64,000 nt of DNA from an uncultured Erysipelotrichaceae bacterium (GCA_947385085.1 CANDJN010000001.1:73494-137493), one strand, 5' to 3'. Counted from the stretch's first letter, positions 34,450 through 41,033 are shown. The notes: generated by a model from the sequence alone, not told the origin. Made by a program: numbers and translations.

Positions 34450-34672
34450 CAGAAATAAAGGCTGAGAATTAGAGTAGTACGTAAAAGTCTGTATTCAGAG
34501 AGCAGTTGGCTGGTGAAAAACTGTTATTAGCTTTTAGGGAACTCACTAAGGAGCCGATAATGAGAAGTTATACGTATCCTTGCGTTAAAAGGATAAAGTG
34601 CATATATCTATTGATATATGAAGCAAGGTGGTACCGCGTTCATGACGTCCTCGCAAATGAGGACTTTTTTTT
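34450..34672 (+). promoter_or_regulatory. T-box riboswitch leader (Leu, candidate specifier CUC at 34542-34544)
   Basis: Conserved T-box AAGCAAGGUGGUACCGCG at 34621-34638; terminator GUCCUC/GAGGAC plus U8 at 34647-34672; AGAGAG and GGUGA stem-I motifs; GAACUCA specifier context. Confidence 0.8.
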
Positions 34673-34694: not shown

Positions 34695-37091
34695 ATGAGC
34701 TTTAATCACAAGGAAATAGAACAGAAATGGCAGAGATATTGGGAGGATCATAAGACCTTTGTATGTGATGTATGGGACTTTGACAAGCCGAAGTTTTATG
34801 CATTAGATATGTTCCCGTATCCCAGTGGACAGGGGTTGCATGTGGGACATCCGGAAGGATATACCGCAAGCGATATTGTTTGTCGAATGAAGAAAATGCA
34901 GGGATATAATGTTTTACATCCAATGGGATTTGATTCCTTTGGTTTACCGGCAGAACAATACGCGATTCAAACTGGAAATCATCCCGAAGGCTTTACTCTA
35001 AAAAACATCGCGACCTTTACTCGACAATTAAAAATGCTTGGCTTTGCCCTGGATTGGGACAAGCAGGTATCTACGTGTGATCCGCATTACTATAAATGGA
35101 CACAGTGGATATTTAAACAGCTGTATGAGGATGGCTTGGCAAAATACGTAAACATTCCGGTAAACTGGTGTGAGGAATTGGGAACAGTTCTTGCCAATGA
35201 TGAAATTGTGGACGGAAAAAGTGAACGCGGTGGTTATCCGGTTGTGCGTAAGAATATGATGCAGTGGGTGATTGATATACCGAAATATGCGGATCGCTTA
35301 TTAGAAGGCCTGGATGATATTGATTGGCCAAGTTCCACAAAGGAAATGCAGCGTAACTGGATTGGCAAATCGATGGGTGCTCACGTTGATTTTAAAGTGG
35401 CAGATCATGATGAATCCTTTACAGTGTTTACGACGCGTTGTGATACCTTGTTTGGGGCGACCTATTGCGTATTGGCTCCAGAACATGACCTCGTTCAAAA
35501 AATCGTAAGTGATGAACAAAAAAACGATGTGGATCACTATGTTTCGGCTTGTGCTCATAAGTCGGAATTAGAACGCACAGAGTTAAATAAAGAGAAAACA
35601 GGCGTTTTTACCGGCGCCTACGCGATCAATCCGGTTAACAATAAAAAAATACCAATTTGGATTTCTGATTATGTGCTGGCAAGCTATGGTACGGGGGCGA
35701 TTATGGCGGTACCGGCGCATGATGAACGTGATTATGCATTTGCTAAAAAATTTGACTTGGAAATTATTCCTGTCTTAGAGGGCGGCGATATTACCAAGGA
35801 AGCATGGACAGAGGATGGACTTCATATCAATTCCGAGTTTTTAGATGGTATGAATAAAGAGGATGCGATTGCGGCGATGATTGCCTTTCTGGAAACAAAT
35901 CACTGCGGTCGTGCACAGGTGAATTATCGCTTACGGGAATGGATTTTTGCACGTCAGCGTTATTGGGGGGAACCGATTCCGATTGTCCACATGGAAAATG
36001 GTGAAAGTGTAGCACTGAATGATGAAGAATTGCCATTAGTATTGCCGCCATTAGCCGATTACAGCCCCAGCAAAAGCGGTGCAAGTCCTCTGGAAAAAGC
36101 AACGGAATGGGTGAATGTGGAACGAAACGGACAAAAGGGCAAACGTGAAACGAGCACCATGCCGGGCAGTGCCGGATCCAGCTGGTATTTCTTGCGCTAT
36201 ATCGATCCGAAAAATGACGAGATGTTTGCGGATCCGAAGCTGTTAAAGCATTGGATGCCGGTGGATTTGTATATCGGTGGCAGTGAACACGCGGTCGGAC
36301 ATCTGCTTTATTCTCGCATGTGGAACCATTACTTATATGACAAAGGTTTGGTTCCGATCAAAGAACCGTTTCAGAAACTGTTCCATCAAGGTATGATCCT
36401 TGGTGAGAACAATGAAAAAATGTCAAAATCACGCGGCAACGTTGTCAATCCCGATGATATTGTGAAGCAATATGGCGCTGATACCCTGCGGCTTTATGAG
36501 ATGTTTATGGGACCGTTAGAGGCCAGCAAGCCATGGGCGGACAGCGGTGTCGAAGCCAGCCGCAAGTGGCTGGATCGTGTATGGCGTTTGATGATGGAAA
36601 GTGATAAATTAAGCGATGAAAACGATCATCAGTTAGATTACAGTTATCATTTTACCGTAAAAAAGGTAACGGAGGACTTCGCATCCTTAAATATGAATAC
36701 GGCTATTTCTCAAATGATGATTTTCATCAATGACTGTTATAAATGCGAACATGTATATCGTCCCTATGCTTTGGATTTTATTAAAATGCTCTCCTGTGTC
36801 GCTCCGCATGTTTGCGAGGAAATGTACACAACATTGACGGGGAAGGAATGCATTGCCAATGAAGCATGGCCGATCTATGATGAAAATCAGCTGAAAAAGA
36901 CTGAAATGGAAGTCATTGCTCAGGTAAACGGCAAGCTGCGCGGACGCTTTACGGTATCGGTAGATGCCGATGAGGACGAGATTCGTCAAGCGGCGATGGA
37001 TCTGCCAAATGTAAAAGCACAGATTGAAGGTAAAACTGTGCGCAAAATCATTGTGGTTAAAGGCAAGGTAGTGAATATTGTAGCGAACTAA
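34695..37091 (+). CDS. leuS: Leucine--tRNA ligase
   Basis: HVGH (HIGH) and KMSKS motifs, CP1 editing domain, 798 aa. Confidence 0.97.
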
Positions 37092-37301: not shown

Positions 37302-37847
37302 ATGCTTAAAATGATGAACAGAAAAATAGTTTTATATATTTCAATGAGTTTCGATGGCTTTATTGCCGATCATCACCATCGTGTCGCATGGATTGAGGGA
37401 GAAGATCATAGTCATAGCGGTGATTATGGATATGGTGATTTTATTAAAACGATTGATACTGTCATATTGGGAAGTCATACTTACCAGCAAATCATAACGG
37501 AGCTATCCCCCGATGAATGGGTATATCAAGGCCTAACAAGCTATGTGTTGACTCATAAAGAATTCACAGACACTGAGGATATCAAATTCGTGAATGAGCA
37601 TATCAGTGTTCTAATAGCAAAGCTTAAAAGGCAAGAGGGGAAGGATATATGGATTTGCGGAGGAGCAGATATCGTGAATCAATGTATTAAAAATAATCTG
37701 ATTGATGAATACCATATCACTATTGTGCCGATTATTTTAGGGAAGGGAATCCGATTGTTCCATGATGATAATTTTTTGATCAAGCTGAAATGGAAAGAAA
37801 CAAAACAAGAAAACGGATTATTAGAATGTAGCTATGTTAGAAGATAA
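37302..37847 (+). CDS. Dihydrofolate reductase-like protein (RibD C-terminal domain family)
   Basis: YISMSFDGFIA...WICGGADIV pattern. Confidence 0.7.
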   Translation: MLKMMNRKIVLYISMSFDGFIADHHHRVAWIEGEDHSHSGDYGYGDFIKTIDTVILGSHTYQQIITELSPDEWVYQGLTSYVLTHKEFTDTEDIKFVNEHISVLIAKLKRQEGKDIWICGGADIVNQCIKNNLIDEYHITIVPIILGKGIRLFHDDNFLIKLKWKETKQENGLLECSYVRR

Positions 37848-38027
37848 ATATGGCAATGGAGAATGAGAGTGGATAAGAAAATTTAAAGCTAAACGGATCA
37901 AGTGATAAAAACTATATAGGAGATACGCTTTTTATGTTATAATATTTGATGTGAGGGTCAGCATATATAGATCATGTTAAGACAATTAATAATAGGCTAT
38001 GAGTTTACAAAGGAGGAAGATGGATAT

Positions 38028-38528
38028 ATGAAAAGATACCCTTTTTTCATTACCCTGGTGGGCATATTAATTATGAGCGGGTGCACCAAAATGGAGCCAA
38101 TTACAGATTCTAATTTTCAAAATGGTATTTCTGATGCGACCGTATTTGTGCGCGGAATGGGATGCAATGATCCGAATTGTACAGATTCCACACATCACCA
38201 CGATTGCCCGTCAGACTGCGATGATTATAATCATTACCACAACTGTGACTTGAATTGTACGGAAACAAGTCATCATCATTTCAATACACATCATGGAGAT
38301 GATATTGATACCAATGTCTCTTTTGTGAGTGGAATGGGGTGCAATGACCCGAATTGTACAGATTCCACACATCACCACGATTGTCCAGCCGACTGCGATG
38401 ATTATGATCATTATCATCACTGCAGCTTGAATTGTACGGAAACCAGTCATCATCATAATGAATCAAATAATGCGAATCGCTCTGGACAGCATCATCAGAG
38501 AAGACATCATGGTGGCACCCATCATTAG
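38028..38528 (+). CDS. Cys/His-rich tandem-repeat lipoprotein (putative extracytoplasmic metal-binding protein)
   Basis: Lipobox LIMSGC after a signal peptide. Two 59-aa repeats each carry CNDPNC, CPxDC, CxLNC pairs separated by HHH/HYH stretches; C-terminal His-rich tail. Confidence 0.6.
   Translation: MKRYPFFITLVGILIMSGCTKMEPITDSNFQNGISDATVFVRGMGCNDPNCTDSTHHHDCPSDCDDYNHYHNCDLNCTETSHHHFNTHHGDDIDTNVSFVSGMGCNDPNCTDSTHHHDCPADCDDYDHYHHCSLNCTETSHHHNESNNANRSGQHHQRRHHGGTHH
38148..38457 (+). repeat. ~177-bp tandem duplication (2 copies, ~90% identical) inside the lipoprotein gene
   Basis: Unit 1 starts GTGCGCGGAATGGGATGCAATGATCCGAATTGTACAGATTCCACACATCACCACGATTG; it repeats starting at 38325. Confidence 0.8.
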
Positions 38529-38644
38529 CGATGGAGAATCTTTAAAAGCCAAACCCTATGGGATTAACTCAAATGTTTAATAGGAGATTGGCTTTTTAAA
38601 TTTGATACTTAAGATAGAGCAAAACACATTTGAAGGAGACAGTT

Positions 38645-39259
38645 ATGAAAGAAATTGATCCCAGACAAATCAAAAGAGCACAAGCATATGAATTATGGAT
38701 GAAAGCACCAAATCCGAAAGTGACCTTTTTCAAAACATTTGATGTGACACCGCTGGTTAAAAAAAGCTTAAAACAAAAATATAAGTTTAATATGCTGATG
38801 GATTATTGTATCGGGAAAGCAGCTTCTGGGATAGAAGAATTTTATACACTCCCTGTAGGAGATAAGCTAATTCAATACGATACACTTGCTGTCAATACGA
38901 TCGTAAAAAATAAAAATGGCGAGGTGAGCTCCTGCGATGTATTATACAGTGATGATTTGGAGCAATTTAATGATGATTATTTAAAGTATACACAAGAAGT
39001 CAACGAAACATGCCAAAATCGCGATTTGACAGACAGTATGGTGATTGGTACCTCTGCCATCATTGACACAACGCTTGATGGCATTGTGGGAATGAACAGC
39101 GATTTTCACAATCCGTTTGTCATGTGGGGAAAATATCAAAAGCGATTTTTTAAATATGAACTGCGTATTTCCTTTCAATTTCACCATACACAAATGGATG
39201 GGGCACATGCAGGACGATTTTTAGAGCAGCTACAAAAGGAAATGAATCATTTACGATAA
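38645..39259 (+). CDS. cat: Chloramphenicol O-acetyltransferase family protein (type A CAT-like)
   Basis: CAT-family catalytic motif FHHTQMDGAH near the C-terminus; ~205 aa; RBS GAAGGAG. Confidence 0.7.
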   Translation: MKEIDPRQIKRAQAYELWMKAPNPKVTFFKTFDVTPLVKKSLKQKYKFNMLMDYCIGKAASGIEEFYTLPVGDKLIQYDTLAVNTIVKNKNGEVSSCDVLYSDDLEQFNDDYLKYTQEVNETCQNRDLTDSMVIGTSAIIDTTLDGIVGMNSDFHNPFVMWGKYQKRFFKYELRISFQFHHTQMDGAHAGRFLEQLQKEMNHLR

Positions 39260-39396: not shown

Positions 39397-39999
39397 TTGA
39401 TCATTTCGACTTATAGTGGTCATTATAAAAATTCAAAGTATTTATCCATGGACGCAGAAACAGATGCGATCGATGAATTTCTAAAAGAAAACGGCATTGA
39501 TCATTTAAAAGCGGTGATCGGATTCTCGTTGGGCGGCAATATGGCGTTTTATTATTTCTGTCACCATAGTACAATGATTGATCAGGTCATTGTGGATACC
39601 GCTCCCATAATTAAATTCCCGCATTTTATTAAATCGTACTTCTATAACAAATTTCGAAGATGACTGAATAATGCAAGAAATCATCCTGATAAAGCTGCGG
39701 AAGTTTTAAATCAATGCTTTCATGGTATGGGAGATGCGCAACAATATATTGCGCCTATTGTAAGTTTCGATAGCTTAAAAAACTTAATCGAGAGCTGTTT
39801 TCATGTCGAAGCCCCCAAGTTGGATTCACAAACACAGCGCAAAATTACCTTTGTATATGGGAAGGAGGATACCACCAGGCTCTGTTTACCGCGAATCAGA
39901 AAATACAAAAACAGTGAATTTATAATCGCCGCTTCCATGGGACATTGTGGTTATTTTCAATTTCACAGTGATGATTATCTAACAAGATTGCTGCAATAA
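39397..39999 (+). pseudogene. Fragmented alpha/beta-hydrolase gene (two out-of-frame pieces, N-terminus missing)
   Basis: Piece 1 carries the nucleophile elbow GFSLGG; piece 2 carries the C-terminal His region (MGHCGY); ~60-nt frame break between them. Confidence 0.55.
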
Positions 40000-40006
40000 G
40001 AGATTT

Positions 40007-40339
40007 CTATGGTCTGTTATTTTCTCCCCACTCGCATAATTGATCCAAAATTGGCATTAACGATTTTCCTTTATCGGATAAATAATATTCTACTTTAGGT
40101 GGAATTTCTTGATATTCTTTGCGTATGATCAAGCCGCATTCTTCCAGATCTTTTAAATTGGCCGTTAAGGTTTTAAAGGAGATGGGATCTAAAAATCTTT
40201 TCAGTTCATTATAGCGAAAGGTTCCGTAAAAGGCTAGGGAATATAGGATCGATAATTTATATTTACCGGATATTAAAGACATACTATAGGAAAATCCGGA
40301 ATCTTCAAAATGGACGTCCTTCTCAGCACATGGCTTCAT
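40007..40339 (-). CDS. HxlR-family transcriptional regulator
   Basis: wHTH; start at MKPCAEKD with RBS AAAGGAG. Confidence 0.8.
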   Translation of the reverse strand: MKPCAEKDVHFEDSGFSYSMSLISGKYKLSILYSLAFYGTFRYNELKRFLDPISFKTLTANLKDLEECGLIIRKEYQEIPPKVEYYLSDKGKSLMPILDQLCEWGENNRP

Positions 40340-40472
40340 TTTACACTCTCCTTTAGGTAAGTACTTTACAAAATGATTGTACCATAATAAAATGTATATG
40401 TAAATGATTTCGTTGTGTATAAACATCTGATGCGCGGAAATCTTTACCGATATTCACAATGGAGGAATGAAC

Positions 40473-41033
40473 ATGAGAAAAAATATTAAAACAACCGAAG
40501 CAATTTTTCCGATGCCGGTATTAATGATCGCTACCTATAATGAGGATGGCAGTGTTGATGTCATGAACGCCGCATGGGGAACAATGTTATCACGCAATCA
40601 AGTGATTCTAAATTTAACCGAAACACACAAGACGGTTAAAAACATCAAGCAAAGAAAAGCATTTACAGTCAGTATAGCGGATAGTGATCACGTGGTGGAA
40701 GCGGATTATTTCGGCGTTGTATCAGGCAATAATACACCAAATAAATTTGAAAACAGTGGCTTATCACAAACAAAGTCAGAAAATGTCAACGCTCCGATCA
40801 TCAATGAATTTCCAATTTGTCTTGAATGCGAGTTTATCGAGTATCAGGATGGTGAATATGGTTGTGGTGTCATTGGTAAAGTTGTGAATGTTACCGCCGA
40901 TGAAAAAGTGTTGAAGGATGATCGTGTTGATATTGAGGCAGTGAGCGCCATTGCGTTTGATCCCTATACTGCCGGATATTATAAGGTCTCAAAGAGAGTC
41001 GGGAATGCCTTTAAAGATGGCTTTCAATTATAA
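40473..41033 (+). CDS. Flavin reductase-like (FMN-binding split barrel) protein
   Basis: MPVLMIATYNEDGSVDVMNAAWG motif; divergent from the HxlR regulator. Confidence 0.75.
   Translation: MRKNIKTTEAIFPMPVLMIATYNEDGSVDVMNAAWGTMLSRNQVILNLTETHKTVKNIKQRKAFTVSIADSDHVVEADYFGVVSGNNTPNKFENSGLSQTKSENVNAPIINEFPICLECEFIEYQDGEYGCGVIGKVVNVTADEKVLKDDRVDIEAVSAIAFDPYTAGYYKVSKRVGNAFKDGFQL

Follow-up and report, generated by a model that had tools for sequence, protein, structure and literature searches.

A 64,000-nucleotide stretch of DNA from an uncultured Erysipelotrichaceae bacterium (GCA_947385085.1, CANDJN010000001.1:73494-137493), which we call the window and always mean at its full length, carries between a leucyl-tRNA synthetase (LeuRS) gene and a CAT-like gene an intact gene for a small lipoprotein rich in cysteine and histidine. 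Its product combines a lipoprotein signal peptide, two copies of a unit with three Cys pairs, and a His-rich tail (Table 1). We describe here this protein, the family to which it belongs, and the signalling proteins that carry its unit or are encoded next to it in other genomes, and we discuss metal binding as its possible function. The reading frame with its lipobox, the two units of 59-residue period with their three Cys pairs and HHH/HYH runs, and the His-rich tail had all been singled out in an original prediction made from the DNA sequence, and on each of them our analyses agree.

The lipoprotein, its duplicated unit and its family

The 166-residue precursor opens with the signal peptide MKRYPFFITLVGILIMSG, which ends in the lipobox IMSG immediately before Cys19. 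It passes a PROSITE-style rule combining a positively charged N-terminus, a hydrophobic stretch and the motif [LIVMFWSTAG]2-[LIVMFYSTAGCQ]-[AGS]-C with the Cys at positions 15-35; lipidation is predicted from this rule. The mature chain of 147 residues (17% His, 8% Cys, 13% Asp) starts with a spacer of 19 residues before unit 1. The units, 46-48 residues long, follow the pattern F-V-x-G-M-G-C-x4-C-T-D-x-x-H-H-H-D-C-P-x-D-C-x-D-Y-x-H-Y-H-x-C-x-L-N-C-T-E-T-S-H-H-H, in which the three Cys pairs are spaced C-x4-C, C-x3-C and C-x3-C and each is followed by HHH or HYH. The linkers of homologues carry HH dyads too, the tail pattern GQHHxExHHGxxHH is conserved among them, and 73 of the 126 family members end in HH.

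How old is the duplication? It had been described as a tandem duplication of ~177 bp at ~90% identity, either recent or homogenised. A direct repeat is indeed present, the direct-repeat finder matching 38145-38279 with 38322-38456 over 135 nucleotides at 88% identity and a spacing of 177, which is the 59-residue period of the units. The similarity does not extend over the full period, being confined to 135-138 of the 177 nucleotides, and Tandem Repeats Finder called no 177-nucleotide array because just about three quarters of each period is similar. The dating fares less well. Over the 46-codon core, units 1 and 2 differ by 0.075 nonsynonymous (dN) and 0.71 synonymous (dS) substitutions per site (dN/dS ~0.11, Nei-Gojobori), so that most differences are synonymous, and these two values indicate that the duplication is old and that both copies have long been under purifying selection.

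Table 1. Features of the lipoprotein gene and its surroundings, numbered from the first nucleotide of the window
Feature	Position	Strand	Details and source
T-box leader	34455-34655	+	Rfam RF00230, 126.6 bits; directly 5' of the LeuRS gene (34695-37091)
Candidate extended -10 element TGtTATAAT	37935..37943	+	~85 nt 5' of the start codon; inferred by reading the sequence
Ribosome-binding site AAGGAGGA	38010..38017	+	AAGGAGG at 38010-38016; read from the sequence
Prolipoprotein coding sequence, stop codon included	38028..38528	+	166 codons, intact; open reading frame list
Predicted type II (lipoprotein) signal peptide MKRYPFFITLVGILIMSG and lipidated Cys19	38028..38084	+	Cys19 codon at 38082-38084; PROSITE-style lipobox rule
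Unit 1, residues 39-84, VFVRGMGCNDPNCTDSTHHHDCPSDCDDYNHYHNCDLNCTETSHHH	38142..38279	+	three C-x3/4-C-x4-H-x-H sub-repeats; repeat finder, motif and conservation analyses
Inter-unit linker, 13 residues, with His dyad (FNTHHGDDIDTNV)	38280..38318	+	sequence
Unit 2, residues 98-143, SFVSGMGCNDPNCTDSTHHHDCPADCDDYDHYHHCSLNCTETSHHH	38319..38456	+	86% nucleotide identity to unit 1 over 138 nt
His-rich C-terminal tail NESNNANRSGQHHQRRHHGGTHH, ending in HH	38457..38525	+	sequence
Inverted repeat, weak terminator candidate	38541..38599	+	12-nt arms, 35-nt loop, then T-rich sequence; repeat finder
HxlR-family regulator and flavin reductase genes, divergent pair	40007-40426 and 40467-41033	- and +	pair also present at locus L049

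The family is small. A word-indexed search of 5.8 billion proteins returned 65 relatives, none with a functional name, and no more than 67 came from 1.84 billion cluster representatives searched exhaustively with an HMMER profile. The GTDB species set holds 38 loci, all in metagenome-assembled genomes (MAGs) labelled Lachnospiraceae, Oscillospiraceae, Clostridia and the like, and their isolate labels suggest animal-gut studies. The window protein itself is found as an exact match in public assemblies. Among 126 homologues, 71 have one unit, 45 have two, eight have three and two have four. The strict lipobox rule is passed by 81 of the 115 homologues of at most 270 residues, with the Cys at about position 19, and weak LPAM_1/LptM_cons Pfam matches occur in family members. 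Judged by sequence pattern, all members examined have at the N-terminus a lipobox or some other hydrophobic signal-like sequence, have a transmembrane anchor, or are truncated N-terminally.

Twelve positions of the unit stand out. In 193 units defined by a hidden Markov model (HMM), C11, C16, H21, H23, C25, C29, H34, H36, C38, C42, H47 and H49 are conserved at 96-100% and the Met of GMGC at 94%; the middle residue of HxH varies (H, Y, F or N). Two independently built alignments (A2 and A3) display the same invariant positions. The invariance in a further alignment (A4) is partly circular, its units having been chosen by a Cys/His regular expression, and we therefore relied on the HMM-defined units and on A2 and A3. 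Divergent members repeat a 13-residue sub-motif almost exactly, as with CDESCTNAEHYHG, present three times, and the sub-motifs of a protein mostly number a multiple of three (3, 6, 9 or 12). Read at the level of sequence, this pattern of Cys and His conservation and sub-motif repetition is the signature of ligand residues, and it suggests that the elementary unit is one Cys2His2 site.

The motif had not been recognised as a named family, and wider searches gave the same answer. Pfam and NCBIfam have no match for the window protein, Pfam returned only weak lipoprotein-signal models for 28 family members, and profile searches of all PDB sequences with the whole-protein and unit alignments gave no relevant match. 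AlphaFold2 models of the full protein (25-sequence alignment; pLDDT, the predicted value of the local distance difference test, 38) are essentially devoid of secondary structure, those of a single unit (78-sequence alignment, pLDDT 56) have no regular secondary structure, and Foldseek found no match in the PDB for the unit model. Small metal-dependent domains typically have no fold without their metal, and the lack of a confident predicted fold for the unit is negative evidence only. Neither its sequence nor its predicted structure relates the unit to anything described.

Fusions and operons with signalling genes

Extracytoplasmic and C-terminal in its carriers, the unit is a portable module. 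Of the ten long representatives that the exhaustive search returned, nine belong to the BlaR1-type Peptidase_M56 membrane proteins and bear one or two units and a His tail at their extreme C-terminus, past the last transmembrane helix. Four of the nine also contain M23 peptidase domains, and in three carriers (P0068, P0083 and P0114) the units are the sole extracytoplasmic domain. Proteins of the BlaR1/MecR1 family are multi-pass, with an HExxH M56 domain followed by a transmembrane helix and an extracellular C-terminal domain, and have an adjacent cognate BlaI gene. The window protein has no M56 domain and lies outside this family; its features are found in the carriers P0068, P0069, P0083, P0088, P0105, P0109, P0110, P0114 and P0121 and in those of loci L018, L021, L036 and L038.

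The same association is visible in gene order. At L021, a Penicillinase_R (BlaI) repressor gene is followed by the gene for an M56 protein ending in two units. At L012, L016, L019, L020, L024, L031 and L037, it is a stand-alone lipoprotein gene that lies directly downstream of a blaI gene and a blaR1-like gene. The gap behind the blaR1-like gene is short (~65-70 nucleotides in L012, L016, L019, L024 and L031; 32 in L037), so the lipoprotein looks like the only cargo of the operon. The BlaR1-like proteins of these operons have a short extracellular part that ends in a similar His-rich tail. Overall, blaI/blaR1 genes are fused or adjacent in 12 of the 38 species loci and, when all flanking open reading frames of 42 loci are clustered, BlaI is the sole recurrent non-generic neighbour; the neighbourhood is not conserved around most stand-alone homologues.

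A second type of carrier, apparently anti-sigma-like, is encoded at L045 (4020-5698). There, the gene for an ECF-type sigma factor (Sigma70_r2, 37 bits) overlaps with the beginning of a gene for a 362-residue single-pass membrane protein of no known family, ending in one Cys/His unit and a His-rich region. The pair has the layout of a probable sigma/anti-sigma arrangement. Different carriers can also meet in one genome: a single MAG holds the orphan lipoprotein gene of L015 and the M56 fusion of L018, whose modules are 84% identical in DNA.

Literature searches turned up neither a previously described Cys/His-rich lipoprotein nor a metal-sensing BlaR1 in Clostridia, yielding only the PetR/PetP precedent given below and a study of DAG-RiPPs (PMC13056109), and the recurrent coupling of the module to BlaR1/BlaI and sigma/anti-sigma signalling is unreported in the literature searched. 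A precedent exists in the BlaI/BlaR1-type pair PetR/PetP, which responds to copper: with copper present, the M48/M56 protease PetP degrades PetR (PMC7896320; bioRxiv 10.1101/2020.07.31.226407). The BlaI/BlaR1 chassis is thus able to report metal status.

Several details of these loci may be recorded here. In L016 (4737-5933) and L037 (4844-5968), the extracellular part of the BlaR1-like M56 protein consists only of a low-complexity linker with a His-rich tail, for example GGSHDGHHSESHHDSSHHDGSHH. About 40-110 nucleotides 5' of blaI in L012, L016, L019, L024, L031 and L037, we observed a TTGACA -35 element followed by two copies of an imperfect palindrome, GTCGAAnnnnTTAGAC, flanking the -10 element; this palindrome is probably the BlaI-like operator. 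A different palindrome, AGACTnnnnnnAGTCT, is present in L018 and L021. At L018 (4045-7768), the module-bearing M56 gene is followed directly by a BlaR1-like (M56) gene, placing two M56 genes in tandem. At L027 (3-2947), a BlaR1-like (M56) gene likewise directly follows a module-bearing reading frame, the N-terminal part of which lies beyond the contig start. Finally, the one-unit member P0042 is encoded on a mobilisable element (L052, 1939-9685) with a Mob_Pre relaxase, a serine recombinase, TnpV and a NikA-like protein.

Possible functions of the Cys/His unit

What could such a protein do? The reading we favour, with a confidence only a little better than even, is that it is a surface metal binder held by a lipid anchor, metallothionein-like, or a sensor element, with two modules of three putative Cys2His2 knuckles each. 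After Sec export, the protein would be cleaved and lipidated at Cys19 and the mature chain displayed at the cell surface. Soft or borderline metal ions would be held there, up to about six of them by the knuckles (about three in each unit) and further ones by the His dyads, and the chain would probably fold only once metal is bound. Zn(II) or Cu(I) would be the best candidates, Ni or Co being also possible. Cys2His2 sites and a link to Zn peptidases would suit Zn(II); Cu(I) would fit the copper precedents within the BlaI family, CopY and PetR/PetP, and CxxxC-plus-His ligand sets of this kind are those of Sco and CuA proteins.

The module lies on or beside BlaR1-type and anti-sigma-like carriers and therefore probably contributes ligand binding, sensing or buffering to these circuits. 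The signal that controls cleavage of the BlaI-type repressor in BlaR1-type carriers would be whether metal occupies the module or has been lost through chelation or oxidation: the protease would read the metal state of the surface and then remove the repressor. Where the lipoprotein is operon cargo, it would serve as an induced sink or a co-sensor. The window copy, an orphan that stands alone and would have its own promoter, could be a surface metal sink or relay, and may be a constitutive surface metal buffer. A bolder proposal, which we put forward tentatively and consider rather improbable, is that gut Firmicutes have a new class of extracytoplasmic sensors for metal (or metal/redox), with BlaR1-BlaI and sigma/anti-sigma chassis and with the unit as their ligand-sensing domain, the free lipoprotein being a split-off co-sensor or a decoy that sets the threshold. 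If true, this would be the first case of a metallothionein-like protein that is membrane-anchored, extracytoplasmic and linked to regulated proteolysis.

The idea of an extracytoplasmic metal-binding lipoprotein was already part of the original prediction. It is strengthened by the ligand-like conservation, the lack of a confident metal-free fold and the export signals, and is still unproven. A number of observations weigh against it. Metal binding and the identity of the metal are inferred from sequence, and all homologues come from metagenome assemblies. No metal-responsive regulator site, which had been proposed as a check, was found beside the window gene: we recognised no Zur, Fur or CsoR-type site and no riboswitch 5' of it. 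The 64-kb window contains no M56 or BlaI gene, and about two thirds of the family loci are orphans in unrelated neighbourhoods. Several M56 fusions have large other extracellular domains between the membrane and the module, which need not be the sensor there, and in the M23 fusions the module sits where, by analogy, a wall-targeting domain would usually stand. Lastly, a thioredoxin-fold neighbour at L052 agrees equally well with a role in thiol redox and with metal loading.

Extracytoplasmic Cys/His-rich metal-binding modules are a known category (Pht, Csp1, bufferins, metallothioneins), with which the window family can be compared. Bacterial metallothioneins (SmtA/BmtA) are, like the proteins described here, short Cys/His-rich chains with little or no structure in the absence of metal and with ligands as the conserved positions, and it is plausible that both buffer Zn or other soft metals. 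They are, however, cytosolic, devoid of a signal peptide and made mainly of Cys clusters, whereas the present protein is predicted to be exported and lipid-anchored, with regular C-x3/4-C-x4-H-x-H triplets, as many Cys as His, and no Pfam match at E<=1; the Metallothio_Pro model of the cytosolic Cys9His2-3 Zn4 cluster of the SmtA family matched neither the window protein nor the 28 members. The streptococcal Pht proteins are also Gram-positive surface lipoproteins with several copies of a short His-based metal (Zn) motif. They differ in their motif (HxxHxH, without Cys), their length (~800 residues) and their tie to AdcAII zinc uptake. We found no sequence match to Pht (PF04270, the repeated HxxHxH of Strep_his_triad; no Pfam or NCBIfam match at E<=1 to 10) and no zinc-uptake genes nearby in the locus gene tables or the clustering of flanking reading frames.

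Smaller metal-binding folds resemble the unit locally. Its GMGC-x4-C has a Cys spacing other than that of the GMxCxxC loop of HMA domains (~70 residues, beta-alpha-beta-beta-alpha-beta), PF00403 gave no match, and our models have no such fold. Retroviral-type CCHC knuckles (C-x2-C-x4-H-x4-C) and C2H2 fingers (C-x2-4-C-x12-H-x3-5-H) are closer in scale: each sub-repeat places four ligands in ~13 residues, with a Cys pair followed after four residues by a His. Here, however, the order is CC-HH with an HxH, the spacing is different, the location is extracellular rather than suited to nucleic-acid binding, and Pfam finds no match.

On the signalling side, homologues place the module exactly where BlaR1 and MecR1 have their extracellular sensor, past the last transmembrane helix, with a BlaI-type gene upstream; in place of the penicillin-binding (class D beta-lactamase-like) domain with which BlaR1 senses, the homologues have Cys/His units, a His-rich tail or both. 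The PetR/PetP pair of Synechocystis and CopY also involve BlaI-family repressors, theirs being metal-dependent. PetP has no extracytoplasmic sensor domain (bioRxiv 10.1101/2020.07.31.226407), CopY binds Cu itself through a C-terminal Cys motif that is absent from the BlaI-like proteins here, and neither system has a partner lipoprotein. Csp1, bufferins, oxazolins and the DAG-RiPPs are exported or lipidated Cys-rich products implicated in copper handling, with CxxxC motifs in the Csp proteins and a lipoprotein signal in DAG-RiPP precursors (PMC13056109). In contrast to these, the present family has no four-helix bundle, no MNIO or partner genes and neither a CPxCGxG nor an EGKCG motif, and its hosts are anaerobic Firmicutes.

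Do the conserved Cys pairs point to redox chemistry rather than metal? The module could be an extracytoplasmic sensor of thiol redox state or oxidants, its Cys pairs, free or holding Zn in the manner of zinc-thiolate switches, being oxidised by oxygen or electrophiles; oxidation would shift the conformation and activate the BlaR1-like protease or the anti-sigma factor, and a lone lipoprotein would be a sacrificial thiol buffer. The invariant Cys pairs in obligately anaerobic hosts and the position of the module, which two classes of signalling proteins carry at their sensor end, agree with this, as does a 299-residue protein with two thioredoxin-fold regions encoded directly upstream of P0042 at L052. 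That neighbour occurs at one locus only, however, and a pure thiol switch would leave unexplained why the six His of each unit are as invariant as the Cys, and why there are a conserved Met and His-rich tails. We consider this explanation unlikely, and it overlaps with metal binding if the pairs hold Zn. Somewhat less credit still goes to a docking or targeting module with at most a structural metal, which would tether its carrier to the wall, to a surface polymer or to its own copies and neither buffer nor sense metal. Units follow M23 peptidase domains in L038, P0069 and P0088, and the wall-targeting domain of lysostaphin-type enzymes also stands after the peptidase domain; the module is always at the extreme C-terminus, and one genome can bear it on two different proteins. 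Yet a lipoprotein made of targeting modules alone would be without cargo, the strongly acidic, His-rich composition of the module is unlike that of known wall-binding domains, Pfam finds no similarity to SH3b, LysM, CWB or SLH domains, and the blaI-blaR1-lipoprotein operons make the lipoprotein the regulated product.

It is very unlikely, in our opinion, that the protein is the lipidated precursor of a post-translationally modified product (a RiPP-lipoprotein hybrid), with its Cys enzymatically converted as in DAG-RiPPs, bufferins and oxazolins. Precursors that combine a lipoprotein signal with Cys motifs do exist, including C-terminally modified proteins of >30 kDa (PMC13056109), short Cys motifs are repeated in the family, and a radical SAM gene lies ~5.4 kb downstream on the window's contig (L001, 15926-16810). 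Seven unrelated genes separate it from the lipoprotein gene, though, it is not conserved elsewhere, and no MNIO (DUF692) or radical SAM gene recurs beside the lipoprotein gene in 42 loci. The class of DAG-RiPPs or MNIO-modified precursors is defined by CPxCGxG (or EGKCG) at the C-terminus, together with a neighbouring MNIO (DUF692) gene and that gene's partner (PMC13056109), and the present family lacks the defining motif; MNIO chemistry moreover requires O2, and the hosts are gut anaerobes. As for a spurious or decaying low-complexity reading frame of no function, its unusual composition, a pseudogene nearby (the split hydrolase at 39397-39999) and the lack of annotation anywhere might raise the suspicion, to which we attach next to no weight: the dN/dS of ~0.11 between units and the conservation of signal peptide, units and tail in 126 homologues exclude it, and the gene has a syntenic orthologue in a related species and a strong ribosome-binding site.

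Metal binding at the surface, our preferred reading, would have consequences beyond this locus. Many BlaR1-like M56 proteins of Firmicutes respond to signals that are not known, and a module in the sensor position provides a testable ligand hypothesis, metal or redox, for one subgroup. It would add a new type of extracytoplasmic metal-handling protein in strict anaerobes of the gut, where the availability of Zn and Cu is shaped by diet and host. If metal is bound tightly, the 48-residue, cleanly repeating module could also serve as a small genetically encoded metal-binding tag.

Expression signals, neighbours and history of the window copy

The LeuRS of the neighbouring gene most resembles those of uncultured Erysipelotrichia (84% for an 'Erysipelotrichia bacterium' MAG, 77% for Anaerorhabdus and 75% for Erysipelatoclostridium). 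This host class differs from that of most family members, which makes horizontal acquisition of the window gene likely, the donor probably being from Clostridia. At 41% G+C, the gene is no different from the window (40%). A related species has a one-unit orthologue, P0008 (107 residues), at the same position (L049), between the LeuRS gene and the CAT-like, HxlR and flavin-reductase genes, and four syntenic metagenome contigs of the window species (99.4-99.6% DNA identity) contain the two-unit gene, with a protein 99% identical. The gene is therefore maintained.

The start codon is preceded by a strong ribosome-binding site in a GGAGGAAGAT...ATG layout common to many homologues; an alternative in-frame ATG at 37974 has no such site. 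We note that the spacer to the start codon measures 11 nucleotides, with a 4-nucleotide insertion relative to homologues, and that a four-codon mini reading frame, ATGGATATATGA (38020-38031, plus strand), overlaps the lipoprotein start codon with its stop (ATGA). A TGnTAnAAT-type element like the candidate extended -10 element is found at a similar upstream distance in five homologues (L007, L009, L014, L006 and L015). It was not reported by the consensus promoter scan, which requires a -35 hexamer, and the promoter and terminator scan gave counts no higher than those of shuffled controls. The inverted repeat behind the gene was not called by the terminator scan and is not conserved at L049.

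No operator was common to the upstream regions of 31 stand-alone homologues, and none of the GTCGAAnnnnTTAGAC repeats of the blaI promoters were seen 5' of the window gene by eye, no pattern search having been run. At the gathering threshold over the whole window, Rfam has no riboswitch or leader for the lipoprotein gene; at a permissive threshold, region 37840-38660 gave only a chance miRNA-like match (E 0.11). The intergenic regions on either side of the gene (37855-37934 and 38530-38598, plus strand) share ATGGAGAAT...ATAGGAGATnnGCTTTTTA, a 19-nucleotide direct repeat (D3) with a spacing of 664 that is not conserved in L049. It could be a duplicated piece of a terminator or promoter, or the trace of an insertion.

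The region had been called a decaying accessory region next to a CAT-family gene. The downstream gene is indeed CAT-like (PF00302, E 1.7e-16), but decay is limited to one neighbour, the others being intact and the context kept in L049. This neighbour consists of two adjacent reading frames on the plus strand (39397-39663 and 39727-39999) that look like the halves of one alpha/beta-hydrolase, the first with an Abhydrolase_1 match (E 8.9e-07) and the second without a Pfam match; it is probably a frameshifted pseudogene, and is absent between the CAT-like and HxlR genes of L049. The HxlR/flavin-reductase pair that follows is a typical thiol- or electrophile-stress module, with no evident link to the lipoprotein. 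On the upstream side, the LeuRS gene is preceded by a T-box leader.

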